DNA of 62,027 nt, filler included, from Sphacelaria rigidula (lineage: Eukaryota): assembly GCA_964200075.2 (NCBI GenBank). It is 10 parts of 10 records of this genome, joined end to end, with 100 filler letters (N's around TTAATTAATTAA, not from the genome) between each part and the next. Parts side by side here need not be neighbours in the genome. Positions count along the whole stretch, not along the records: positions 6,215 to 12,328 come from CAXNAA020022139.1; 9 more parts are not named here. The stretch is one strand, 5' to 3'. A program made the position numbers and the translations under genes. Shown here piece by piece: positions 1-49,603 of this stretch (within the stretch, counting starts at the first letter, position 1; the number at the start of each line of letters is the position of its first letter). Below the pieces are notes generated by a model that did no database searches, was not told where the DNA came from, and saw only the letters and a program-made list of their open reading frames with translations.

Positions 1-7
1 CCCGACA

Positions 8-69
8 TTGTAGGGATCCTTGGTCAATGGTCTCATGACTATGGCATGCATGATCATGAGTACACCCCC
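8..69 (+). mobile_element. 3' end fragment of C-tailed LINE (subfamily II), in the secA intron about 40 nt upstream of a splice acceptor
   Basis: TTGTAGGGAT..GGTCAATGGTCTCATGACTATGGCATGCATGATCATGAGTACACCCCC matches copies at 21317-21377, 30861-30921 and 35289-35333, and is homologous to the 3' end of the LINE at 57327-57410 (minus strand). Confidence 0.85.
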
Positions 70-3100: not shown

Positions 3101-6012
3101 AGACCCGGGCGCCACTCGCTTCTTCCTCTCACTGGACGACGATATTTTCAGGTGCTCTCTTGCATTTTTGTTTTCGTTTTTGCTCTTCGTGTTGCACTTT
3201 TTTTTTTTCTTGTATACTCGACCAAGATAGAGACTCCTTTCGAGGGTGTTTCCGTTCAGTTTGCCACGGCTACTGGGCGCGTCTCTCATGGCCACGGCAA
3301 CTGTAGATACAGCGTAGATACAGCCTTTAGACACGGTCGCAGCCGATGAAATGCGGCAGTGTTTGCTGGTTCGCTGTCCAGAAAATTCAACCGCATGTGG
3401 CAAATACACAGTGGTGGGATACGCAGCATTCGAGATACAACGTACAATATACAAGACAGAGTAACGTCGCGCGCCGGTGATCTCTATGGTGTATGGTGTA
3501 TGATGTAGCCTCTATCGTACAGCTGCAAGCAATTCAATTACATGGGAACAAGGCGAGGTCGAACTATTGGCTGCTGGCAGATGCATATGCGTTTGTGAGA
3601 AAGTGTCTAATTTGTCTCGGTGGAAACGCGAGGACGCGAGAAGGGGCCTTTTTATGTGAGTCGACCGCGGCGCGGAAGTACTGATGGTCATTATCCAATC
3701 AACGATACTAACATACGATGTATGTACTTCGCCCGGGGGAGAGAGAGGGCGGCTGATTACTCGAGAGGATGGACTCGTCTCGAGTAAGGGAACAAGTTGA
3801 GGGTATGACGGAGAGCAGAAACTGGGTGCTTGCCTGATACCTGTTGACGGTCCCGACCACAATGGGTCTTTCTGGAGGCTAGCCCAACCCCACCACCCCA
3901 TCCCACATCTGGCAGTATACTAATCCACACCCTGGATTATGACAGTATATTGCACTGTCAAGAAGTGCACTATGTACAGTACGACTATTGCGCCTATCGC
4001 ATTAGACAATATATGCCACATTGTACGCAGTATAATGTTTGACAGTGTAATAGGTTGTCCTGAGTGTGTACTAATGCCAAGTTAAAGGCTATGAAGATCC
4101 AGATTTGGGAGAAATCCCCCCAGAGATGGTTGACTGTACTGGTTCGCTCTGTGACATCGGGTGAAGTACCTGGCTACAAGAGAATCGGCGATGAAGGTAA
4201 TGAAGGCAATCTTAGACCTTATTCGTCATGTGTGCGCGCACTGTGACTTTTGTGCTCATGTTGAATGGCGGCGTGCTATCTTGAGCAGCTAACCGAGCGC
4301 TCCCGTCTCCAACTCTTGTATCTGTTGGCATAATGTTCATCCAGGGTGTTCGGAGGGGATCAAGTGACGAAGATCATGGACAGCTTCCGCCTTTCGGACG
4401 ACATTCCTATCGAAAACAAGCAGGTCAGTCGTGTTCCACGGTATTCGGAGAAAAATCAGCATGTTCCACAACGAACAGGTTGGTCGCGCTCGACAGACAC
4501 AGATAACAACACCCTTTAACACCTTTTGGTTTTCATGACAGGCTGGCACTTCACTCTCCACTCTCCGCAGAGAACGACGCGTGGTCATTTTCCACGACGT
4601 GATAGTTTACCCACGTTCCACACGAAGAAACATCGTCGGTGATATTGCGTGACACAAGAGGTTGGTCATCACCCCTGTAGACAAGCGAGTACATGGGGTT
4701 GGTTATGTTTCATGAAAATTATCCCAGGGTGTGCTTCGATCAAGGGGTTGAGGTCACGACTTGCTACATGAACACTTATATGTCGTTCCTCTGGTGCATG
4801 GTGCTCTATCCATCTACGATGCTCGCAAATGCGTGCAGTGTATCTTGTCAAAAAGCTATAGTATTGCTCCAGTGTGTAACTGCGTACCTTTGCGGGCTTG
4901 TCATGTGTCATCGATAGATCGATAGATCGATATATGGGTAGATCGATCGGTTGGTTGGTTGATCGATTGACTGTTTCATTGACTGTTTTACTGATTGCCG
5001 CACGATTACTGACCCGCGAGGCATACCGTTAGTGTCTACCGTGTGTGGTGATGTGTGGCGATGTGAGGTGGCCTGATTTTTGTGGTGTTATGTGCGTTGT
5101 CAGGTGTCTAACACGTTGGACAAGGTGCAAATGAAGACGGAGGACTACTTTGCTGGCATCCGAAGGACAGTCTTCTCGTTCGATGAGGTGAGCGCATGTG
5201 CCCATCTATTCCTGCCTCGAGATATACTTTTGTCGTGTCGAGGTGAGCGCATGTGCTTCGGCCCCTGGGCCGAGACCAAAATATATCTCGAGGGGACCCT
5301 TGGAAAAATCGGTTCCGACAAAATATCTCTTGAAGAAACTTTCAAATTTCCAGTATATACCGTCGTCGCCGCCGTTTCGTAGATCGATACGAAGAATTTT
5401 CTCTATCCAGGAGGTGAGCTGGAAATGATTATGCATGCACCTGTGTGTCGTTTCCTCGATCGGAAGTGCGCTTCATTTTTTTCGTCCGACGAGAAGTACG
5501 CTGTGAAAGCGCGGTGCATGCCTGATGCGTGCATGCACTCCAGCTTTTCAATGCTTGTGGTTTTCGCCAACCAGTGGAGAATTGTTTTTCGTCTTTCAAT
5601 GTCATTCCGTGGTTTTTACTACCTCGATTCTCCCATGTGTCTTGTATATACGGCTATCATACGTGAATTCGCTATCGTGGACCCCCATGTGCGGACACGA
5701 GCGCCTCGTACGAATCAAATTATAGTTCTTGTATTTCGTGCAAACCTCCTCACCCCATCTTCTCCGTAAGATTACTCTCACAGTGTTTTATTCTCTTCTA
5801 CTCTACTCTGTTGTGCGCTGGACTGTTATATTTCGTTGTATAGGAAGCTGACCCCCATATTGTGTGTGTACGCGCTCATGAGTGCAGGTAATGAACGAGC
5901 AGCGTCTCGACATGTATCGCGCCAGGGACGGCATTCTCTACAGAGACCCCGAGTCCCTCGCACAGCTGGCACTCGATTACGCCGAGAAAACATGCACGGA
6001 GATCGTCCAAGG
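110..6012 (+). CDS. secA: Nuclear-encoded plastid/cyanobacterial-type preprotein translocase SecA, internal fragment; exons 110-388, 3006-3151, 4345-4423, 5104-5187, 5888-6012 (gene continues beyond both contig ends)
   Basis: Exons have AG/GT boundaries and compatible phases. They splice to ...DSFFPCDLT...[122 protein letters not shown]... The [21 protein letters not shown] motif is diagnostic of SecA. Confidence 0.95.
943..1315 (-). mobile_element. tRNA-derived SINE family A, full-length copy in a secA intron
   Basis: The minus strand starts AGCCGGTCGCCCCGGTGGCTCACTTGG (A box), then GGGTTCGAATCTC (B box). Body and ACAACAC-rich tail are shared with 12935-13302 and other copies. Confidence 0.85.
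2271..2540 (-). mobile_element. SINE family B, degenerate copy
   Basis: CTCGAGACGACTCCGTAGTCTCAACGGATCAAGCCATCTCTCCCC is the reverse complement of the 3' part of 14703-14995 and 29853-30112. Confidence 0.65.
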
Positions 6013-6039
6013 GTAAGAGGGCGGATAGCAGATGAAGTA

Positions 6040-6114
6040 CGTGTGTGTGTATTGTCGTCCCATTTATTTTGGGCACCAGTCTACACCTTTCGGTATATGT
6101 GGGTGCATCAGCCG
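6040..6114 (-). mobile_element. SINE family A 3' end, cut by the contig end
   Basis: GTGTGTGTATTGTCGTCCCATTTATTTTGGGCACCAGTCTACACC matches the SINE A tail. Confidence 0.8.
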
Positions 6115-6214
6115 NNNNNNNNNNNNNNNNNNNNNNNNNNNNNNNNNNNNNNNNNNNNTTAATTAATTAANNNNNNNNNNNNNNNNNNNNNNNNNNNNNN
6201 NNNNNNNNNNNNNN
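6115..6214. other. Artificial contig linker N44-TTAATTAATTAA-N44; also at 12329-12428, 18542-18641, 24755-24854, 30968-31067, 37180-37279, 43392-43491, 49604-49703, 55816-55915
   Basis: The same 100-nt spacer, with stops in all six frames, occurs nine times. Intervening contigs decrease monotonically from 6114 to 6112 nt. Confidence 0.99.
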
Positions 6215-9200
6215 GTACGTGCCCATGTTACATGTCTTGTCACGGAGATAGTTCCTCGTACAGTCAGAACTCGCATCGCGTCACGTGGGTAGCCCTCGGC
6301 TGGGCTCAAGTACCAGCACTTCTCGGCCTTCGGCTGCAATTTATTTGTCCGCCTCCTCCTACAAAAACCAGGCTTTAAGAAAGGAATGAAATCACCTTTC
6401 GGTGGTGATCCATACCACATCTCATGCGGTGATTTATGGTGCGGGTTAGCCGAGGCAGCGGTGCAGTTCAGGGCGTGACACGCCCAGTTCGCCTCTTCAG
6501 CCCACAGGCTGTCACCGTTTGGGATGCGCTGGTCGGGATACAGCTCAGATGCTTGGATTCTGGCCGCAAGGCCTGCTGTTTCGATGATACCTAACGCTCG
6601 CTCTGCAACACCGTTGAACTGGGGTGAGTCTACAGTTGTCTTCTATTGCTTAATCCTTTCTCTGCCGCACAGTTCAGCGAATGCACCCTCCGAAAATTCC
6701 CCCCCGTCATCGCTATGGACTATCTCAACTTTTCTCGGAGAGGCCCATGCAATGTACTTCGTGAAGTATCTCTCTGCCTCATCCTTCTTACGGAGGAAAT
6801 ACAGCTTTGTGTGCCGTGAGTGATGATCTCGGACAATCATCGTGTACGACTTTCCCCCGTTAGACTTGACTGGTTTCGGCCCCGGAAAGATCTACGAACA
6901 CCCTAGACGCTGACTTAGCTGCTCTCGTGTGTGTCGATCTTGGAATCGGTGCCCGCAGTGCCTTCGCCTCTGAGCAGCCGCGGCAGGGCCGCAGCTCCCC
7001 AGCCAGCTGCTTTCCCTGCTGCTTCGCCGTCTTCCTCAGTAAGTCCTCGTGGACGTGAGCGTGGGAACAGTGGAACTCGTTCATGTCAGCGGTCTCGGGG
7101 CTAGGCGGAGCCCCCGGGGCGATAACAGCATATGCCGAAGCACACTTGTCACTACCACTTTGATTGAGGCGGCGGGCGTACATTCTGAGTTGACGTGGTT
7201 GTCCGGGTATTATCAGTGCATTTCCTGAATTGAGATCTACCCTGAAACCATCACGAAAACCAGTGTAGGTGTGTCCCATGTATTGGACCCTCGTGAGTGA
7301 CAAGAGGTGATGACGGACACCGGGTACATGGTCAACATCCACTAGTTTCAGGATTGCATTCTGTCCGTCAGATCTGAAGGCAAGAGACAAATTTCCTCTG
7401 CCTACGATCGGGTAAGTACTACCTCCCGCGCACCGTAGTACCCTACCCTTGCACTCTCTGTACTCCGTCAGCCCATGGGAATCGTGGGAGAAATGCTCGG
7501 TAGCCCCCGTGTCAATTATCCACGGTTCGCCCTCACCCTGCTAACTATCACCCCCCCGCTCAACACTCAATGCATACTCGCCTAGGTTGCCGTTGATGGT
7601 GGTGTCCAGAGAGGTGAAAGCCTCCCCATCGGCCACCGAACAGACGGAGGAGTTGTCGCTGTCATCGGCCGTGCTCGTAGCCATCACCGCGTCTTCTTTC
7701 TTCTCTGTTGATCTCGGGCAGTCCCAGAACGTGTGCCCCTGCTGGCCGCATCTCCCGCAGTATCTCTTCGGGCAGTTCCTGGCTCGATGCGTCGTGTCCT
7801 CGTCGCAAACGTGGCAGCGGAGCAGCTGCCCAGCCGCCGGTTTGCCGTCCGACGATGCCGACCCAGATCTACTCGAACTCTGGCTCCCGCCGTTTTTGTG
7901 ACCATAGCCCTGGGATTTTCCCGGTTTCCCCTTGCGGTGAGCACCGCTCGGTTTCCCGGTTCCACCCCCGGCAAGAAGAGCCCGGGGATGACTTCTTTCC
8001 CCGGGCAAGTTCCTGTTTCAAAGATGTTGATTCGAAGCGCTTTCGAATCGAAGTCAACACGACCTCCCGTGTCAGCGGTCCCTCTCGATCCTCGAGCAAT
8101 TGCTTCTGGATGTGATACTCGAAAGGCAGCGCATTGAGGAATTTCAGGAGAACATGTTTTTCGCTTAGTCGTTCATGTTCCTCGTACGAGTTCAGGTTTC
8201 GTGCAAGTTCCTCCATCTCGAGCAGCTTCTGCTCTGGATCATCACGAACACCGATCTTGATTCCGTCAAACGTTTCCAACAAAGCGGTTCTCGCCCCATT
8301 TGTTTTGGGGCGAAAGACATCCTCGAGTTTTCTCCAAACCGCAGCAGGTGAGTGGGTTCTAAGCCAATATTTTTCTCCCTCCTTCCTTCTAAACTAGCTA
8401 CAAGCATTCGTCTGGCCCCTACGTTGACTGCCACTGTGTCCTTCCCATGTCTGTTCTCTAGATACCCCATCGTTATCTCAGGATTACCGACATCTACATC
8501 TTAAGAACTATTGCCGGCCATGGTGAACACCCAGTCAATTCCTTCGCCCCAACTTGCAATGGTCAAATGACTAAGGCAAGCAACAAATGAGTACCCCCCC
8601 CCCCTTGCGAAGTTAACAAACAGTTAACCAACAAATGAGTACGCCCCTTGCGAAGTTGACCAGTTCGTGCCCGTACCGAGCATAATCAGCGCTCTTGCCT
8701 GAAAATTTCGGGACGTTCGGTCGAAAAACGGGAATCCCTGACACATTTCCACTTGTATCGTTAAGTTGGAGTGACTCACGTGCGGGGACAAAGCCCCTGG
8801 CTTCGTCACTGGTGGCCTCGTTAACCATGTCGTCGCGCGCTCCGTCCTCTGGAACAGCTTGTCTCCCGATGTACCGTCGCTCCCGTCGAACTCCAGCGCC
8901 ACGCCGTTCCGCTGTCCTATTTGTGTTGAATTCCCCCCGTTCACTGTGGGAACCGTCACTATCGAGGGCGCCGTTGTTTTCTGCGCCCCCGGCCTCTCTT
9001 ACTGTCCTCATCTTAGCCAAGTTACTCTGTATTGTAGCTTGACTTAGCTGCATATCACGGATGAGCTGAGCCAAGGAACTCATCTGACTACGTACCTCTC
9101 GTAAATCCTCTGTAACACTCTGCTCACCGAAAACTGTAGCAGGCCTATCACCCTCTTGTGCCATTCTGCCCAACCGGTTGTAACACCAGTGTATTCCGTG

Positions 9201-9463
9201 GCCCGTGGCGAAGGATAGATAATTTTATCTTTTGTATTATTGGAGAGTGCCTAGACTGAGTTGACCCTATGACTGAGGGATCAGATGCTGAGAGAGAGTG
9301 AGCGCACATGGCAGCTACCCAGCTGCCATGAGCGGGATACTGTAGTCACAAACACTCGACTACCGGTACCCGCACGTCCGCATAGTTATATCCGCACGTG
9401 TGCATGTTCAGTCAGTGTACCTGTTCACATGAACACAGCAACCGCTCCGCGATATACACCACA
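6215..9463 (-). mobile_element. Decayed Ty1/copia LTR retrotransposon, 5' part: putative 5' LTR ~9190-9463, primer-binding-site-like TGGTGTTACAACC 9176-9188, then gag, protease, GAG-pre-integrase, integrase
   Basis: Two CCHC knuckles (CHVCDEDTTHRARNC, CGRCGQQGHTFWDC), protease WIIDTGATEH, HHCC region (FHCSHAH...CRGC), integrase core (RVFVDLSG, VHSDDGGEF). Copia domain order; frameshifts present. LTR limits are approximate. Confidence 0.92.
8557..8643 (+). mobile_element. Two stacked micro-insertions of the C-tailed LINE 3' end (subfamily I) interrupting copia gag
   Basis: 8557-8600 reads CAATGGTCAAATGACTAAGGCAAGCAACAAATGAGTA followed by a C-run. 8615-8643 ends CAACAAATGAGTACG and is flanked by the 14-bp direct repeat CCCCTTGCGAAGTT (8601-8614, 8644-8657). 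Removing both restores gag VNFARGEGIDWVFT. Confidence 0.88.
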
Positions 9464-11752
9464 GCACCCGCCGAGCGGAAAGTTTCCCCCACTGTGTAGT
9501 GCAATTGATTGAATTCCTAAGCAGAAGAAAGCAAGGCTGCTTCGTGTACCGAGACGGTCCGCGAACGTCTCGGAGTTTCGTTTTGCAGGATACATACGGT
9601 GGCTGCCCCACTCCTTGATGCCTCGACCCGTAGGCCATGCCGACATATATGTACTGAGCAGTTTTGGCTGTTTGACAAGGGTTAGCAGGGACATGCTCCT
9701 CGGATGGCTTGTGTGGCGTGGGCATGGCGCTTTCAGGTTGTGATGTTGCCTCTCAATGTAAGTCTCCAATACGTGGTCCACGTAATGCCCATGTAATCGG
9801 CATGAACGGTTTCATTTTATTGTGACTATTTTGCCGCTGCTCGCATCGGCTTCAGGCACATGTACCGGGGGGTGTAGTGGGCTCGAATTTACTCTCAGGA
9901 AAGCTAGCATCACTTTATCATGATGGTTCCCGGATGACGGACATTTTGGACATCCCATCCAAATGGCCACAGGCGAGCGAATGGAGCGAGGCTGCGATTC
10001 CACTATTGGGATCCTTTGCAGCAATTCCGCCCACTTGAAAGGCGTGTAGCAGTCCGAAATCAGCTATAACGCCCAAAGGAGTCGCTTCGTGCAGCACAAA
10101 ACCGGATCTGACGGCACTTTTGATCATCACTTCCGTGCACCTTTTTGGCCGGTTCGGGGGGGGGGCTATCTCTGCATGTGATATGATGTGACTGCAGGAC
10201 GTAGCCATGATCTTGGGCAAAAGTGACATTGAATGATGGACATTTTCATGCTCAATTAGCGGAGAATTCGCTGCCCCTTGAGGTTGACGTTCTACGGAGA
10301 GCATGTATTTGAGTTCGAAAAAAGGTAGTGACCCAACCATGGCATGAATTGACGAGCACGCCTTTTGGGATTGTATGGTTTGACCTTAGCTATGTTGATT
10401 TAGGGGGCGGCGAAGCGCGTTCGAAATAAGCAGCCCCGACGATCACTCTCTCTTCTCATCTCGGTTTTTGGCTGCGATTCACCAGTTTCCCCATTGGAGT
10501 ATCTACAAACCGGGAGAAAGTGAGTCCCAGAGATGAGAGCAGTAGTCGGGCTGCTTTTTTGTCTGGTGTGTTTATTTATATAGGTTTCGGCTTGTTTCGG
10601 TTTGTGTTGTATCTCCCTGTTCTTTAGATGAGGTTGGATGCAGCCAATTGTGTGATAAAAGTGCTACTCTGGTCTGTATTATTTGCTCGTTGTCTCCTTG
10701 TGCGAAAGCAACACGAGAGCGACTGTGGTCAGCCCGCGCTGTTGATCTGAGTAAACAAACAACGTACGCAGAGGTCTGAACCTGGAACAATCTTGGTGAA
10801 CACCATGACAACCTCCTCAAGTGCCTTCATCTTTATCACATCACAGTTGGAGCTCCCGCACTGCCTCTGCTGTACTTTTGTTTTTAGTTGCGTTGTGTTC
10901 ACAACTGCCGAGCTGCCGTGTACACTACACTCCCACTGTGTGCCTTGCATGCGCGTCTCTTTTGTTTGTTGATCGTCTAGCCGTCTGTAGTTGTTGCTCT
11001 GTCCTCTATCCCTGGCAAGATGAGTTCAAGGGCCTCTGATACACTAGACGCTCGCACCCTGCGCCGCCTCCGACGCGAACGTACGCGAGCAGTAGCACTT
11101 GCCCCCCCCACCATCCTCACCTGCTCGTCCCAGCTGCCTATATGTGGCAACTGCCCCAGTAATGATACCCATCTACTCTGTAGCGGATGCGAGTCACCAG
11201 GTAGAGTCCAATTTATACCGTGACTCTCCTGCCCCATTACATTTTTTCCCACATGAGCTGCCCGAATGTTATCATATACCAACTCTTTTCTACCACCACC
11301 GGCACTGTATCAGCGTGCATCCTTTCGCTACACCCACCCCGCCGCATGTACCGCCGGCCTTTTATTCTTCAGTAGCTAATATTGACCGTCTCTTGCTGTC
11401 TCAAAATATGCTCACCGTGCAACACATTTGTTTTGTGCCCAGCCTGGGTGTTGACTGTACATCATCCGACCCCACCATGTACTATGTATGTGAACCCAAC
11501 GTCCGTGATAACACTCCCGTACCACCCTCTTCCCAAGGTTCTGTGCTCATCCAGTAAATTTCGTGGACTCCGGTATGGACAACTCGTCCGCACACTCTCT
11601 CTCATACCTTCTTAGATTGCCCCTCCCTGTCTATCACGGGGGCCTGGCCGACTCCCACCACGCCCACAGCCTCCTACAATAGATTATTTGCCTCTTCCAT
11701 TTCCAATGCAACACCCCGGTCACTCATTACTCTCCTTCTTTCTACACTGACT

Positions 11753-12315
11753 GTGACGCGCACCCGCGCAGGTACACAAGCAATATCTAATTCCCCGACT
11801 TCGCTTGAGCTACGTGCCGATGACGAAGGCACATCCTCTTCCGAATCCGGTGAACCACTGCTTGCGTCGGACACAGTCTTGCATGATCCAGTCATTGAAA
11901 GTGTCGAGGATGATGATGATGATGATGCTCAATCTCAGTCGGGAGGAATCCCCCTCTCTACGGTGCCCGACGTACAGCCGGGACTTGATTTCCCACTGTA
12001 TGCCGCCACCGCTCAAACTTTTACCAGTGACACTAGACACGTCGACTCTACTGCTAGTGGTGACCATTCGGTTCGTGATCATTCCCCTCCTGAGCCCTAC
12101 GCTTCTGACGTCGTAGCCTCGACGAGTGATCGTGAGTCGGAAAAAAAAACGTCTACGCACCTACCCAACAAAGCACGCGACAAAGCTAAGACCCAGTTCA
12201 AACATGGCCGTCCCGCTGCTATTCCAGCCCACGCGTGGGACGAATTTTCCCGCGAGGAACAAGCCGCGTACTGGGACGACTTGTTGGCCCAGACCGTACA
12301 AGCGCAAGTAGAACG
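11753..12315 (+). other. Acidic/Ser-rich ORF, possibly the N-terminus of a retroelement gag-like protein; interrupted by a MITE end at the contig edge
   Basis: About 190 open codons of low complexity; no recognisable domain. Confidence 0.25.
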
Positions 12316-12328
12316 GACACTTTCTACG
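12316..12328 (+). mobile_element. Left terminus of MITE family S1 at the contig end
   Basis: GACACTTTCTACG matches the terminal inverted repeat (TIR) of 21243-21604. Confidence 0.6.
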
Positions 12329-12934
12329 NNNNNNNNNNNNNNNNNNNNNNNNNNNNNNNNNNNNNNNNNNNNTTAATTAATTAANNNNNNNNNNNNNNNN
12401 NNNNNNNNNNNNNNNNNNNNNNNNNNNNCGGGGGGGGGGGGGGAGCAAGGGGGTGGGGGAGCTTTGGGGGGGGGGGGGGGGGGGGGGGGGTGGAGTTCCG
12501 TGCAAGATCTTTACCAGCACTACAAGTGCGATTCTGTTTGCCAGCGCTTTCATCTCAACCTTCAATCAACGAAATCCTTGCATGTTTACAGGCTGTCACA
12601 TCTTGTTCATTATACGATAGTAATCGACAGGCCCATCATCTGTGTGAGGCTTTTGGATTGATGCCAAGGAGATAAAGGTGACTTGCAGCCCCGGGACCAC
12701 CCCCCTTGCCTTCCGCGTATCATCGGCACACCGGCAGGCGCGACCAGCATGGTCATCAGCAGCCAAGAACCACGCCTAAAATAACATAATATCTATTTTG
12801 CTCCTTGTGAGCTCTGGTGCATCAACGGTAAATGAAAACTGAAAACGATATTTTTACAACGCACGGATTCCAAATGTATATATATATATATATATAACAT
12901 TCTCATGTTCATTATTTCATTCCCATCATGTAGT

Positions 12935-13302: not shown

Positions 13303-14578
13303 CATACACAGATTTACGTTTCACCCATCCCCTTCCTCGGGAAGAACCCATGGTCCCAAGAGATCTACCCATCCCTGCACGGTACGTGTGTGCCACAAAA
13401 AATGTTGCAGCCATTCGAGTGCGATGGATAAGTCATCATGTTTTGTTGCGTGTGTTACCCATTTGATGGATGATTCACCCAGTGAATAACCGTTGGCCGA
13501 AGGCTTCAGTTTTGTTGCGTTCGTTACGCAACACTCACCGGTTTAGAGGTCAAAAAAAGCTTGCTTTGCGGAGCTGTAGGTCGGGGGTTGGATCCCCGGA
13601 CGCTACACACACGTTACCTTCGCGCACAAACATTACTGGAAAATGACTTTACCAAACCCTCCTCCAGGAGACTGTGATTTGGATCATGACCCTGCCCTGT
13701 TTCACTACTTTTTTACCTAGCCCTTGACCTGAACTGGATCCCTGAGCGATCAATTAGTTGGCCTTGAACGGATTTAGGCTTGCTCGGGGCAAGCACGCCT
13801 CTGAGTCGCAACTGGAGAGCCGTTGAGCTCAATAGTACCCATTTTTCGGTTGGAACGGCTACTCACTACATATAGGCGGAAATTGAAGATACAGCTTCGA
13901 CCTCCCCATTTTTTCCCGTTCCTTCTTTTTCTCAGAGCGTGTTTCAGCTTCGTTTTTGTTGTGTACGTCTATCATGAAACCACGTCTGGACCCCTGGGGG
14001 GTCAGTTGAAGTGCGATAATCAATCAATCAATCAATCGATCAGAGCATGAGGAGCGATCTGCACGAAATCCAGAGTGATAACAGCTTCCAGACCTTTCGA
14101 TGGGAGACGTACAAGACTCTCAACTAGCGCCAACTTTGACAATGGCATCACGTACTCAAGGGGACTGAACTAGACTAGGAACGTAGCGCAAAACTGGTCT
14201 TGCTTGTTTGCGGTAGGAAATCGTACTGTCGAAGCTATATGGTAGGCGACGGAGTAAAGCCCGCTTGAGATAGTGCAAAATTACCCTGAAACTCTCGCAG
14301 GAGTCTCCAGAAAATGAAACCCCCACATTCCTTGGAAATCGTACGTATCGAAACATCTTGATGACGCGTATTGAACTCCACATTCCTTACAAATCTGACG
14401 CATCGAAACACCTTGAAGACGCGTATTGATTGAATGATGTATTTTTCGGTGGCGTGTCCGGACGATGTAGTCACACCGCAGCTGATATCGAAGAAATTGT
14501 GTCGAAATTCGTCACCCCTCACGGTTGTCATACTCCATAGGTAAATTAGTTATTATGGTCAAGCCGCGAGGGGGGAGG

Positions 14579-14637
14579 AAGGGGGGGTGTACTCATGATC
14601 TTGCATGCCGTAGTCATATGACCGTTGATCTTGCAGG
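14579..14637 (-). mobile_element. C-tailed LINE 3' fragment (subfamily II)
   Basis: Minus strand GATCAACGGTCATATGACTACGGCATGCAAGATCATGAGTACACCCCCCC, flanked by an imperfect direct repeat (plus strand CGCGAGGGGGGAGG / CGCGACGGGGGAGG). Confidence 0.82.
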
Positions 14638-14702
14638 CGCGACGGGGGAGGGGGGTACACCCGTTTTGAGGTGGGTAACCCTGATAAACCACATAGATTG
14701 GC

Positions 14703-18128: not shown

Positions 18129-18641
18129 CTGCAAAAACGGGGAAGAACGACGAGCGGACGTATTCATTAACCCGTTCGATTCGAAGAGTTCTCGGATCTT
18201 CAAGGGTACCTCCAGCAGGGCCTGAGACGATAATCTGACCAGTCGCTGTACACGAGAAGTAGACAATTGGCGAAGAGGTATGTTCGCGTAGACAGACCTC
18301 TAATAGTATCGTCACAAGCCATGGTAATACTAGGACGTTTCTGTTAACCCTTGGACAGCGACACCCCCATAGGTGGACTGAGATGGACTACGTCACATAT
18401 GGATTCAGAATAGCTCATTTCTCGCTACACAAGACGCCTTTTTTTACAAACATGTGGACGTTTGGTATCTATATAGAACTAGCACGGTTAGGACAAATCA
18501 TCACGACTCAAAATCACCAAGTTCATCATTTCTTCGGCCTGNNNNNNNNNNNNNNNNNNNNNNNNNNNNNNNNNNNNNNNNNNNNTTAATTAATTAANNN
18601 NNNNNNNNNNNNNNNNNNNNNNNNNNNNNNNNNNNNNNNNN

Positions 18642-19235
18642 GGATTTTCCTGATCTTCGTTACAAACAAGTACCGCGCATCTGTTAACGTTCGCTGTCAC
18701 TCTCCATTTTCTAGTGTATTCTAGTGTCTTCTCTATTTGTTTTTGCCATTGTAGTTATTGTGGTGTTTTCTGATATCCCCACAAACTCATTCGCGAACTT
18801 CAATCCTGATACCATGTCTTCCCCCACCTTGACTCCTTGAGTTGCTGTTTCTATAGCTATCATTGAGTCACCAATGAACACTTTGAATAAAGTGGGTGAT
18901 AACGTACACCCAACTCCTTGTACCATTTCAAAATATTTCCATATTTTCCCGTCTAGCATCATAGCACTTTTTGCACACTGTCATATTCTTGACCGTTCTC
19001 GTCATCTTTCCTCTGATCCCAATTTCCCGCAACGTTTCCCTCAGCCCATTTCTCCATACTGTGTCGTAGGCCTTTTGTACGTCCAGAAAGAGACAGTACG
19101 TTGTCTGCCCAGCGTCTTTCCTACCTTCGATAATATTACCTAATGGGTACATATGGTCCACGCAACTACGGTTTGATCTAGAACCTGCTTGCCCCTCGCT
19201 GATTTTTTATTATTTTTCTAGCATCGATAAGGTGA
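18642..19235 (-). mobile_element. LINE reverse-transcriptase fragment, same family as 57327-61100
   Basis: FLDVQKAYDTVWRNGL, GV..GCTLSPTLFKVFI and GLKFANEFVG (decayed FADD); aligns by eye with 58560-59130. Confidence 0.9.
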
Positions 19236-21242: not shown

Positions 21243-21604
21243 GACACTTTCTATGATAGCCCCTCCCAAAAAAACCAGCCTGGTCCGGCGAAAACCCGGC
21301 GTGCTCCGTCCCGGCTTTGTAGGGATGCGAGGTCAATGGTCATACGACTATAGCATGCATGATCATGAGTACACCCCAAAACCAGCCCAAAAGTGTCCCG
21401 AAAAAAATGGTAATACAGCGCCTGTTGTTTGGGTTCAAGCTGCATTAAGCGCCTCACATGGGCGACATTTATTTGCGAGAACGAACCCATGCGTGGGAAT
21501 TTCCAGCTGCTCGTTGTGCTCGGCTTTTTCCATTTCGATTTACGTGAACATTTTGCCTCCCCAAGCCAGGCACTTTTTTGGGGAGGGCTATCGTAGAAAG
21601 TGTC
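21243..21604. mobile_element. MITE family S1 (TIR GACACTTTCTAYGATAGCCCC), 4-bp TSD GTGT, Sola-like
   Basis: Left end GACACTTTCTATGATAGCCCCTCCC; right end GGGGAGGGCTATCGTAGAAAGTGTC. GTGT at 21239-21242 and 21605-21608. Excision restores the copia zinc knuckle DKCYRCLEPGH. Confidence 0.92.
21281..21377 (+). mobile_element. C-tailed LINE 3' fragment (subfamily II) nested in the MITE
   Basis: Ends GATCATGAGTACACCCC. Direct repeat AAAACCAGCC at 21271-21280 and 21378-21387. The MITE copy at 41018-41273 lacks this insert (empty site CCCCCCCAAAACCAGCCC). Confidence 0.9.
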
Positions 21605-29542: not shown

Positions 29543-29807
29543 GAGTCATGCTACGATAGGGGGGCGGGGGGAGGGGGGGGAGAGGGGGGGATTCCACAAA
29601 AAAGTGGGCTGATGAATGCTTCAGACGACCCAACACACTCGCGGTGCGCTTGTATTTGGGTAAAAGCGGTGTCAAGCAGTATGAATGAGCCTCATTTATC
29701 GGAAGTAAGCGCGTTTGAACAACTGTTGCTGCTATTAACAACGATTTCAAGCGGAATTTCGTTGAACAAAACGGCCCAACATACCCCCCCCCATCGTGGC
29801 ATGACTC
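29543..29807. mobile_element. MITE family S2 (TIR GAGTCATSCTACGATAGGGGGG), 4-bp TSD AAAT, Sola-like
   Basis: Left end GAGTCATGCTACGATAGGGGGG; right end CCCCCCCCCATCGTGGCATGACTC. AAAT at 29539-29542 and 29808-29811. Confidence 0.88.
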
Positions 29808-30504: not shown

Positions 30505-30921
30505 CCAACTCTCATCCGCTACACAAAAACCTTTTTTACATATGCATCACCTTGCTGCTCCGCCGTCTGCGCCCACCATCCATCTCCTGTGGTATACCGA
30601 TCGATTTCTCGCTGCTATCCAATGTACCAAACGATTTCATGCCACGCCCAAATGCTTGAGGTGTCTCTATTGGGAATAGGAACGGTACTCCGTCTCGAGA
30701 GGGATGCGTGATCGATGGTCACATGGCCAAGGCAAGCAACATATTGAGTAACCCACCCACCCCCCCCTCCCAACTCTCTTGACTCCGTCACTAAAGGGAT
30801 GTGTGTTCAATAGTTACACGACTAAGGCCAGCAACGAATGATCACGCACCCCCCCCCCCCTTTGTAGGGATGCGAGGTCAATGGTCTGATGACTATGGCA
30901 GGCATGATCATGAGTACACCC
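30505..30921 (+). mobile_element. Tandem stack of three C-tailed LINE 3' fragments: 30514-30769 (with 5' inversion), 30782-30860, 30861-30921
   Basis: Three successive GGGATG...CA/GAT.GT...TGA..AC + C-run units. The first is flanked by CCAACTCTC (30505-30513, 30770-30778). Confidence 0.85.
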
Positions 30922-34200: not shown

Positions 34201-35288
34201 TGAAACAGACCTTCAAAAGGAATAACAAATGTAGGAGATACCCTCAGGGAAGCACAGAAGAACACCTTGCAACGTAGTAGGCAGGACACAACAAGAGCTT
34301 GATCGCTACAAGCTGAAACCCCATATATTGTCCCAGCTGAAGCCCCATATATTATGAGCTTATGGCTAGTCGCCTTGGAGAAGGCAGCCTCAGTACACGT
34401 TTACCCTGATATGTTCTCACAAACAGAGGCTCAAGCCGTGCGTGCCAGATTGCAATGCACAGCAGCTGCGCAATAAGAAATAAAGACAGATCAAATCACA
34501 GTAGTAGCAATTGAATAAGGTGTTCACAAAGATTGATTCTCTTCTTATACTCTAAAATACAAACCAGAGCCAGTACTTTCCCCACGACCACAAAACGCTC
34601 TGGCGAGGACTCACTTGAAACTCAGAGCAACGGCGGCAAGGCTGATGATATCCTGGGCCCAAGATGAAGTGCTCATGGTAGGGCTAGGGACGATTGTGTG
34701 ACTACCTTACGCAGGAATTAAATCCGTATCAAATCATAGTACTATAACCAAAGAGCAGAAATCCTCCATTCAACGAACGTTCCGGGAACACTATCCGTTG
34801 TGCAGATGATCATTCAATGTGCAGCAGACATCAACCATACTGTGTCTCCCATCGACTATTCGAAACATGAAATAGGATCATTCAACAAACTGACATATCT
34901 CGGCGACTAACCAAGAGTCATATCCAACGTTCATTTACTCCGACATCTGTGTCCAGAACGCTGTGGTACCTTATCGACGCTATCACTATTATAAATACCA
35001 TAACAATGTCAGGTCCTGCGGTGTGCTTTGGCGCCCTGCACCCTGCCGCTGGGCAGTGAGTAGGTAGTTCCGCCGAACGCGTCGCGCTGCGGTTGGTACG
35101 CAGTGTCGAACACAGCAGCAATCAGCGTATTTCATGTACCGTACTTGTACATAGATCTGTGCTCTGAAGACCGATGCGCACACACACAGCAACTACTATT
35201 GTCATTACCCATCGATGAGGGGGGGTGCCACTTCCCCCTCTTCAAATAGGGTACCCAGAGGTCTCCCCCTCCCCCCCTATAGCCCCAG

Positions 35289-35330
35289 TCAATGGTCTGA
35301 CGACTATGGCATGCATGATCATGAGTACAT
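35289..35330 (+). mobile_element. 42-nt C-tailed LINE 3' micro-insertion (subfamily II)
   Basis: TCAATGGTCTGACGACTATGGCATGCATGATCATGAGTACAT, flanked by CCCTATAGCCCCAG (35275-35288) and CCCTACGGCCCCAG (35331-35344). Confidence 0.88.
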
Positions 35331-35790
35331 CCCTACGGCCCCAGAATGAAGTTTGGGCGACCTGGTGGAGGGGTGCCGTCATTTACCGATATGGGGCCCC
35401 TCGCTTCAGCGTGCAGCTGCTTGACGCTTGACACTGTCTCCTGTCTGCCCGAGAAACAGCAGTTTGCAACATATAGTCTATGACATACCGGGAAGCAAGT
35501 CGTGTACGTGTACTTCAAAACAGGAATGGTAGTGACTGGGACTGGTGCGGTACGACCTAGCGGGAATTTGCCGGGAAACGGCTCGCGTCTCAGCGCCGGC
35601 TTGCTGCGGGCCCTTGCCAATGTAGGGCGACGGCGATAGCACGAACACGATATTTGCTCTAATGCAACTTTGCGCTCCGTGCAACGACGCATCACCATAC
35701 CCCGGGTGCGTGCGGCAGACCTTCATTTTAGAGTAGAAGGGCCCAGCCGAGACCACTCCGGTTTTATCGCCGAAATCCGGGACCGCAACG

Positions 35791-40555: not shown

Positions 40556-40627
40556 TGCTCCGTCTCGAAAGGGATGCGTGGTTAGTGGTCAAACGACTTA
40601 GGCAAGCAACTGATGAGTACGCCCCCC
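40556..40627 (+). mobile_element. C-tailed LINE 3' fragment (subfamily I) abutting a telomere-like hexamer array
   Basis: TGCTCCGTCTCGAAAGGGATGCGTGGTTAGTGGTCAAACGACTTAGGCAAGCAACTGATGAGTACGCCCCCC is nearly identical to the reverse complement of 57341-57409. Confidence 0.88.
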
Positions 40628-40698
40628 TGACCGTAACACTGATACTAAAACGCTGATCCTGATCCTGACCCTGACCCTGACCCTGACCCTGACCCTAA
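40625..40698. repeat. Interstitial telomere-like (CCCTGA)n/CCCTAA array, degenerate
   Basis: CCCTGA CCGTAA CACTGA ... TCCTGA TCCTGA (CCCTGA)x4 CCCTAA. Confidence 0.8.
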
Positions 40699-41017: not shown

Positions 41018-41273
41018 GACACTTTTCACGATACTCCCCCCCAAAACCAGCCCAAACGTGTCACGAAAAAAATGGCCATACAGCGCCTAATGTTTGGGTT
41101 CAGGCTGCATGAAGCGCCTCATGCTGGCGACATTGGCTAGAACGAACCCAAACGTGCGAATTCCCAGCTGCTCGTTGTGCCAGGCTTTTCTCATTTCGAT
41201 TCAAGGGAAGAAATTTCCTCCCAAAACCATGCACTTTGTTTTGGGGGGGGGGGGGACTAGCGTAGAAAGTATC
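41018..41273. mobile_element. MITE family S1, uninterrupted copy
   Basis: GACACTTTTCACGATACTCCCCCCC ... GGGGGACTAGCGTAGAAAGTATC; flanks GCCT/CCCT (4-bp TSD with one mismatch). Confidence 0.88.
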
Positions 41274-49510: not shown

Positions 49511-49603
49511 GAGTCATCCTACGATAGGGGGGGGGGTATTTTGGGCCATTTGTTGCTCGAAATTCCGAGTCAGGTCGTCGTTGAACGCCGCAACGGGTGG
49601 TCG
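49511..49603. mobile_element. MITE family S2 terminus, cut by the contig end
   Basis: GAGTCATCCTACGATAGGGGGGGGGG; continues as the reverse complement of 29735-29807. Confidence 0.85.

Follow-up and report, generated by a model that had tools for sequence, protein, structure and literature searches.

A probable pair of C-tailed LINE insertions at a single CCCC within a degraded copia gag gene of Sphacelaria rigidula

Results

Architecture of the insertion site

The DNA analyzed here (hereafter, the window) is a stretch of 62,027 nucleotides, filler included, from Sphacelaria rigidula (GenBank assembly GCA_964200075.2), in which ten parts of ten records are joined end to end. Our analysis centers on a site within the part derived from CAXNAA020022139.1 (positions 6215-12328), where the gag gene of a copia-type long terminal repeat (LTR) retrotransposon is interrupted by short segments of a long interspersed nuclear element (LINE) that adjoin runs of C. 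The host retrotransposon (6163-9224, minus strand) is degraded, carrying further stop codons and frame changes. It is classified by its copia-type gag domain (PF14223, 7869-8393, minus strand, E = 8.8e-9) and its Pol beta-barrel domain (Pol_BBD, PF22936, 6860-7540, minus strand), along with a weak match to the SH3-like domain PF25597; these domains follow each other in the copia order. The insertion site is located in the N-terminal part of gag.

Read on the plus strand, the upstream flank CCTTCGCCCC (8541-8550) ends in the target CCCC (8547-8550) and is followed by a first insert of 44 nt (8551-8594), which represents the 3' end of one of two LINE subfamilies in the window, termed subfamily B. 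The 3' junction of insert 1 is formed by a run of ten C (8595-8604), the last four of which begin the sequence CCCCTTGCGAAGTT. This sequence is present twice, at 8601-8614 and at 8644-8657, with all 14 positions identical, and the two copies enclose a second insert of 29 nt (8615-8643) that again carries a subfamily B end. Insert 2 is thus flanked by a perfect target site duplication (TSD) of 14 bp that begins with CCCC. A 97-nt block (given as 8551-8643) breaks the open reading frame (ORF) of gag, which runs on the minus strand: its translation reaches the block in frame 0 with ...YGHELVNFARG and picks up again on the other side in frame 1 with EGIDWVFT, a shift that is accounted for by an interruption of 97 nt, that is, of 3n+1.

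The state of the site before insertion can be deduced from sibling copia copies. Contigs of four public runs (X1-X4) were aligned to positions 6215-12328 at 85% likeness, and the evidence for an empty site is confined to this stretch. A joint that skips exactly 97 nt (from 8544 to 8642) was found in two, three, three and five contigs of X1 to X4, respectively, with five to six letters fitting either side, and the same skip at 8547 to 8645 was seen in one, one, zero and one contigs. Two of the runs, X2 and X4, represent a single sample and the best-matching run may be the window's own source; the skips are evidence on sibling copies within one kind of genome and do not constitute independent replication. 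Within the window itself, a comparison of positions 4500-9800 with the whole stretch brought up LINE tails and a short repeat of 72 nt but no second copy of the host copia. The empty siblings, together with the gag reading frame, indicate that four C were present before the insertion. Compared with these four, the run at 8595-8604 contains six extra C, contributed by the tail of the element or by later slippage.

A preliminary description of this locus had proposed two inserts at the same CCCC, whose removal would restore gag: one of 29 nt, with a perfect 14-bp TSD starting with CCCC, and a second of about 45 nt that ends on the CCCC. The frame shift and the 97-nt skips in all four runs bear this out, with the longer insert measuring 44 nt. 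The proposal would have failed if all siblings carried the block, and siblings free of it were recovered from each of the four runs. We consider it probable that the block consists of two separate insertions of very short, 5'-truncated LINE copies into the same CCCC, both generated by target-primed reverse transcription (TPRT). In terms of annotation, the stretch is a commonplace case of nested repeats, with two tiny LINE tails in a dead copia element.

The LINE family and its copies

A sequence of ~40 nt ending in ...ATGAGTAC recurs throughout the window in two subfamilies. Subfamily B ends in ...CAACAAATGAGTAC, with a G often next, and subfamily A in ...CATGATCATGAGTACA, the two being 82.7% identical over the last 52 nt, which is about all that they have in common. 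The window contains 11 copies with an anchored 3' end, here numbered c1 to c11, with inserts 1 and 2 corresponding to c2 and c3. Subfamily A comprises c1 (1-64, plus strand, cut by the window start), c4 (14588-14637, minus strand, ~50 nt), c5 (21281-21373, plus strand, 93 nt), c8 (30861-30918, plus strand) and c9 (35289-35330, plus strand, ~42 nt). Subfamily B includes, in addition to the two inserts, c6 (30514-30751, plus strand), c7 (30783-30848, plus strand), whose end is divergent, c10 (40556-40621, plus strand, ~66 nt) and c11 (57345-61326, minus strand), which is near full-length and frameshifted. An internal reverse transcriptase (RT) fragment of the same kind of LINE at 18641-19227 (minus strand), corresponding to residues 769-964 of the related protein P0004 (see below), adjoins a masked block and shows no 3' end, so that it was left out of the junction counts.

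All 11 copies are anchored at the 3' end and range from 29 nt to ~4 kb in length. A common 3' end, variable 5' truncation and TSDs of variable length are the features of a LINE that integrates by TPRT. One copy, c6, additionally contains an inverted 5' part (30521-30645), equivalent to element positions -252 to -131 from the 3' end, followed by a direct 3' part (30647-30750), equivalent to positions -104 to -2, with ~26 nt missing between the two. This arrangement corresponds to the twin-priming pattern of L1 (human LINE-1); twin priming is reportedly a variant of TPRT that gives rise to inverted, truncated L1 copies flanked by TSDs (PMC2837659).

Four copies of the LINE end (L001 to L004) were identified outside the window, two of them in metagenome contigs and two in contigs filed as bacterial metagenome-assembled genomes (MAGs). 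The latter contigs, those of L003 and L004 (one titled Sulfitobacter sp., the other uncultured bacterium), carry the LINE 3' end together with a C-run and are most simply explained as algal host DNA that was binned with bacteria. In viral contigs, the LINE tail pattern was not found.

Against this background, insert 1 can be divided into six leading nucleotides with no match in the element and 38 nt that represent the 3' end of subfamily B and encode the last residues of the ORF along with its stop codon. This part (8557-8594) matches the end of c11, the long copy, at 94.7% identity and agrees with L001 and L004 at all of its 38 nt. The last 15 nt of insert 2 likewise correspond to the subfamily B end, including a terminal G (...GAGTACG) that is shared with L001, L002, L004 and the copy ending at 40621 and is not found in insert 1.

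Coding capacity and relatives

The coding capacity of the family is best seen in c11, which carries frameshifted pieces of an endonuclease (EN) and an RT. The stretch 61326-57352 (minus strand) is colinear with residues 13-1360 of P0004, and the RT fragment of c11 matches two full-length relatives of 1328 and 1360 aa, P0003 and P0004, respectively, as well as the Ectocarpus protein P0006, which is 56% identical to the degraded fragment of the window LINE. Both P0003 and P0004 are single proteins that contain an EN and an RT domain. In P0004, an apurinic/apyrimidinic endonuclease (APE)-type domain (PF03372/PF14529) is located at residues 170-414 and an RT domain (PF00078) at residues 740-989; the fragments in the window by themselves score below the Pfam cut-offs. 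Among PDB entries, the best sequence matches of P0004 are L1 ORF2p and R2 proteins, limited to the RT core, with the structures 8uw3 and 8c8j representing L1. Neither the 5' end of c11 nor an upstream TSD was found within the window, and this end probably lies beyond the window end.

The relatives end in ...VVNGQMTKASNK (NGQMTKASNK), a sequence encoded by the conserved tail. In c11, the stop codon (57349-57351, minus strand) is followed only by GTAC, that is, by 4 nt up to the end of the element. The ~60-nt tail common to autonomous and short copies, including L001-L004, is the end of the ORF, leaving almost no 3' untranslated region (UTR). A consensus fold of 14 tails yields a single 5-bp hairpin, GGTC-N4-GACT (e.g., 8560-8573), whose stem is nearly invariant and whose loop is variable in both subfamilies. 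Compensatory changes in this hairpin were not seen across the 14 tails, and it may represent a recognition signal for the RT or merely reflect codon conservation.

C-runs at the 3' junctions

Past the element end, CCC starts within the first six positions in 10 of the 11 copies, compared with 7.6% of the 121,774 strand-positions of the window. Examples are CCCCC behind c1, CCC behind c8, CCCCCC behind c10 and a C-rich stretch of 18 nt (57327-57344, minus strand) directly behind the 3' end of c11. In the eleventh copy, c7 with its divergent end, a run of 12 C (30849-30860) starts 7 nt later. The first 10 nt past the end contain 6.27 C on average, as opposed to a background of 2.51, and none of 100,000 resamplings reached this value. 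The four external copies show the same feature without exception, with 8 to 13 C in the runs behind their ends (G+C8, G+C10, C9TC9 and G+C13). An A-run was not observed behind any of the 15 ends (11 in the window and four external), so that these elements lack the poly-A tail typical of L1.

Among the contigs of the four runs, between 661 and 1204 per run enter the copia site from the upstream sequence of the element. Another 484 to 1147 per run diverge from it past the tenth C (8604), where their consensus adds 16 to 22 C, a tail length that is overstated because these loose ends were sampled only from copies with a match to ten C.

The window also contains very long homopolymers that lack a recognizable LINE tail, namely a C tract of 44 to 53 nt (56394-56446), a run of 27 C (53961-53987) and runs of 14 and 25 G on the plus strand (12429-12490); these may be landing pads or remnants. 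As a possible origin of the C-runs in the window, we considered ultra-short insertions consisting of a few element nucleotides plus tail, and rejected it: GTAC or GTAA lies within 2 nt before three of the 135 runs of at least 5 C, compared with 2.4 expected, and all three belong to known copies.

Contributions of target and tail

Since the element carries a C tail, a C-run at the 3' junction alone says nothing about the target. The TSDs can be assessed in the nine short copies with both flanks in the window. Clear TSDs, 9 to ~20 bp in length overall, were identified for five of them: c3 (14 of 14 positions), c4 (~18 to 23 bp with an indel; G-rich copies at 14565-14587 and 14638-14655), c5 (14 to 16 bp with an indel; 21265-21280 and 21374-21387), c6 (9 to 10 bp; 30505-30513 and 30770-30778) and c9 (12 of 14 positions; 35275-35288 and 35331-35344). 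The upstream TSD copy begins with CCC in four of these five cases, relative to a CCC background of 1.8%, and the TSD of c4 is C-rich throughout. As the upstream copy never touches the element tail, its leading CCC indicates that the C-run was part of the target. A C tail contributed by the element itself is evident at two junctions, which contain C in excess of the target: the six extra C behind c2, and 16 C-rich nucleotides of c6 (30752-30767) that are not present in its upstream TSD copy. C-runs at the junctions thus stem from both the target and the tail of the element. Beyond the C-run, the flanks differ in every copy, which argues against strict site or microsatellite specificity.

In c9, the mismatch between the TSD copies is confined to a single dinucleotide, TA versus CG, as would result from deamination of a CpG on both strands.

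Clustering and re-targeting

Five of the 11 copies form two clusters in which neighbors are separated by 48, 91 and 76 nt, and three neighbor gaps of at most 100 nt among 11 sites arose in only 42 of 100,000 random placements. Within the clusters, c2 and c3 share one CCCC, and c8 lies directly behind the run of 12 C that follows c7, 91 nt past the end of c6. Moreover, contigs from all four runs contain joints that go back by 43-48 nt (from 8600-8604 to 8555-8559), revealing that the order of tail, C-run and a further tail occurs elsewhere in the genome.

These results also bear on the remaining claims of the preliminary description. Its assignment of the inserts to an APE-type LINE agrees with the domains of P0004 and the colinearity of c11, its further TSD pairs (those of c4, c5, c6 and c9) are all present, with two mismatches in c9 and an indel in c4, and its suggestion that each insertion regenerates a target fits the clustering and the tail/C-run/tail joints. 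The claim that TSDs start at or next to a C-run applies to four of the five clear upstream copies, c6 being the exception. As for its overall interpretation, target preference and re-targeting stand, whereas the C tail of the element itself, evident at 8595-8604 and 30752-30767, had been missed.

Other repeats and features in the window

Runs of 9 to 12 C followed by a motif close to TATCGTAGGATGACTC are found at 29784 and 31207 (plus strand) and at 49536 (minus strand), and the external copy L002 has a similar motif after its own C-run. At two of the three sites in the window, the sequence before the run is conserved as well (...GGCCCAAnATA). These sites probably represent the termini of other C-run-bounded repeat families. 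Another repeat family (AAAA..GTGCATGG...) starts directly behind runs of 9 to 13 C at 41255, 37381 (minus strand) and 21374-21587 (minus strand), with one of its copies abutting the 3' end of c5, and a looser form of its motif behind ten C at 10165 (minus strand) is perhaps a further member. Thirty nucleotides behind c10, there is an array of 7.3 copies of the hexamer CTGACC (40653-40696); written as CCCTGA, the unit is one letter away from the C-strand of a TTAGGG-type telomere repeat. An ORF at 56024-56725 (minus strand) matches Pfam family PF14922 (FWWh, protein of unknown function; E = 1e-20) and is probably part of a host gene between repeats. Paired blocks of 44 N, 12 nt apart, recur every ~6.2 kb (6115-6214, 12329-12428, etc.) and are masks rather than assembly gaps.

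Discussion

Relationship to known elements

The habit of landing at C-runs is already known, as the kind of element described here is cataloged in a transposable element library of the brown alga Ectocarpus and behaves as the catalog says. In this library (PMC12477816, supplementary file 1), RTEX-1a/1b_Ec32 are annotated as 'single EN-RT ORF; (C)n 3'' and RTEX-2_Ec32 as '(C)n termini/TSD'. The non-autonomous RTEX-N1_Ec32 is 607 bp long, is 83% identical to RTEX-1/2 in its 3' 60 bp and 'can be present in tandem'. The TSD entry of RTEX-1a/1b, RTEX-2, RTEX-N1 and RTEX-N2 reads 'C-rich' in all cases. Judging from these entries, the window LINE resembles the Ectocarpus RTE-X elements in its single EN-RT ORF, its (C)n 3' terminus (10 of 11 copies in the window and four of four external ones), its C-rich TSDs (CCC at the start of four of five), its tandem habit and its high copy number, and a homologous Ectocarpus protein, P0006, exists. 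Subfamily A is probably a non-autonomous partner comparable to RTEX-N1, since both are short elements that share their 3' end with an autonomous one, at 83% over ~60 bp in Ectocarpus and at 82.7% over 52 nt in the window. We conclude that the window LINE matches the RTE-X of the library, a label that is based on published descriptions and an Ectocarpus homolog rather than on a phylogeny or a consensus, which counts against pressing it further. The other LINEs among these entries, RTE-1/2_Ec32, with a (CAA)n 3' end, and CRE-1_Ec32, with a (CA)n 3' end and the order RT-EN, resemble the window LINE in that a simple-repeat tail takes the place of poly-A, and they occur in a genome of the same kind. 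They differ in the tail unit, in the domain order of CRE and in that no C-rich TSD is listed for them. Tail and domain order together exclude both groups. In the accessible part of the main text of the same study, the terms 'C-rich', 'homopolymer' and 'insertion preference' do not occur, and among titles and the openings of abstracts we found no C-tailed LINE outside the Ectocarpus supplement.

The comparison with L1 is instructive as well. Both elements combine an APE-type endonuclease with an RT, use TPRT, show 5' truncation and 5' inversion, and possess a homopolymer tail whose letter also starts the TSD. For L1, a review presents base pairing between the tail and the nicked target as the step with which the process is proposed to begin (PMC3812793). 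However, L1 has a poly-A tail and a T-rich nick site, whereas the tail of the window LINE consists of C and so does not arise from polyadenylation. In addition, L1 has a separate ORF1, whereas the relatives of the window LINE have a single ORF and almost no 3' UTR, and the match of L1 ORF2p to P0004 is restricted to the RT, with E ~1e-20 over the RT core. The window LINE thus works like L1 but is not a member of it. A second parallel is provided by APE-type LINEs that target microsatellites, listed in the same review as Waldo (ACAY), Mino (AC), Kibi (TC), Koshi (TTC) and Dong (TAA), with no mononucleotide C in this list. Like the window LINE, these elements insert into a simple repeat equal to their own 3' tail, such that the target is recreated by each copy. 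The window LINE probably belongs to another clade and uses a mononucleotide C/G run, of which 3 to 4 nt are enough, with a preference that is not strict.

Origin of the two inserts

One alternative to two independent insertions is that only insert 1 was retroposed, with insert 2 and its apparent TSD resulting from a local tandem duplication of ~48 nt across the 3' junction of insert 1. The repeated stretch indeed spans both element end and target, comprising CAACAAATGAGTAC, the C-run and TTGCGAAGTT, and the first 11 nt of insert 2 are, by eye, loosely similar to the downstream flank at 8658-8665. However, 14 + 14 nt are perfectly conserved between the two units while the remaining 14 show hardly any agreement, a distribution that fits a TSD plus an element end rather than uniform decay. 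Moreover, the end of insert 2, GAGTACG, is the one found in the consensus of the external copies and includes a G that is lacking from insert 1; there is no microhomology at the supposed joint; and the order tail/C-run/tail is common elsewhere in the genome, in line with the library's remark, cited above, that such elements can be present in tandem (PMC12477816). A tandem duplication therefore appears improbable. A single complex event in which template jumping produced both inserts is ruled out by the duplicated piece of target between them.

Choice of the target

How the C-runs come to mark the junctions can be pictured as follows. The bottom strand would be nicked such that its 3' end is a short G-run, whose G residues would pair with the C-run behind ...GUAC in the RNA. 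Reverse transcription would start at this pairing, so that the duplication begins with C, and every new copy would leave behind a C-run that could again serve as a landing site. The C-run of the RNA would most simply originate from transcription of the C-run behind each source copy, and slippage or untemplated synthesis could lengthen it. It is also conceivable that the element has no target preference and that all C-runs are tails it brings or adds, for instance by untemplated addition of G to the primer by the RT. The extra C at two junctions, the long C consensus behind the element in hundreds of contigs per run and the library entry '(C)n 3'' (PMC12477816) would be compatible with such a scenario. 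Nevertheless, we judge it very unlikely, because four of the five clear TSDs begin with CCC in the copy that lies off the tail, and because sibling copia copies and the gag frame reveal four C before the insertion.

Given a preference for C-runs in the target, the question is whether it resides in the pairing step or in the nuclease. We lean, with some reserve, towards pairing of the primer with the RNA tail as the main selective step. The first of the two options in the preliminary description, an endonuclease that itself recognizes G-runs, through either their sequence or an unusual structure adopted by G:C tracts, and introduces the nick at their 3' end, with RNA-tail pairing being secondary, is possible but less plausible to us. 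The positions of the inferred nicks would suit it, as they lie at or inside runs (top strand, G/CCCC in c3, A/CCCCCC in c4, T/CCC in c5 and CCCC/CCC in c9), and so would the occurrence of two events at the same CCCC. Furthermore, APE-type LINEs with target-preferring nucleases exist (the five microsatellite-targeting elements named above), although the mechanism of microsatellite targeting by LINEs is described as poorly understood in the review (PMC3812793). Unspecific nicks filtered by annealing would, however, give the same junction pattern, and c6 was nicked at T/CCAAC, integrated anyway and kept its C-rich tail of 16 nt. If a primer with few G anneals to a long RNA tail, just this outcome is expected, namely a cut without a run and a long tail retained in the product, and it is on the strength of this copy that we place primer pairing ahead of a run-specific nuclease.

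Several observations weigh against the combined picture of two TPRT insertions by a LINE that prefers C-runs. The sample is small, with only five clear TSDs; none was found for c7 and c10, two of the nine short copies, and in c2 and c8 only C is duplicated, so that tail and target are inseparable. The preference is not absolute either, as illustrated by c6, whose TSD starts with CC only. Among the 19 runs of at least 8 C or G in the window, only four adjoin a recognizable tail of the LINE family, and the tail length derived from the contigs is, as mentioned, too high. Finally, the first six nucleotides of insert 1 and the first 14 of insert 2 are unexplained as element sequence, the latter matching the element poorly (~8 of 12 positions, with a gap, as read by eye against the consensus).

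Implications

The site in the copia gag, with its empty target, its perfect TSD and two insertions at one CCCC, represents a clean worked example of a property that has so far been recorded only in a supplementary table. A C-tailed LINE also separates tail-target pairing from polyadenylation, two features that are confounded in L1, and could be used to test the roles of primer-template pairing and the nuclease in target choice. It is tempting to speculate, albeit tentatively, that G:C homopolymer tracts have become a genuine requirement of the RT or the endonuclease of this family and that slippage or untemplated synthesis allows the element to generate or extend a C tail of its own. If so, it would be a natural 'mirror L1', offering a way to investigate tail-target pairing without polyadenylation or poly-A-binding proteins playing a part. 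C/G runs would then act as self-propagating landing pads, and the LINE family would be a main source of long poly-C/poly-G tracts in these genomes, of which the window contains examples measuring 25, 27 and 44 to 53 nt. Re-targeting, for its part, explains the head-to-tail and nested pile-up of these LINEs and matters for the repeat masking and assembly of brown-algal genomes.

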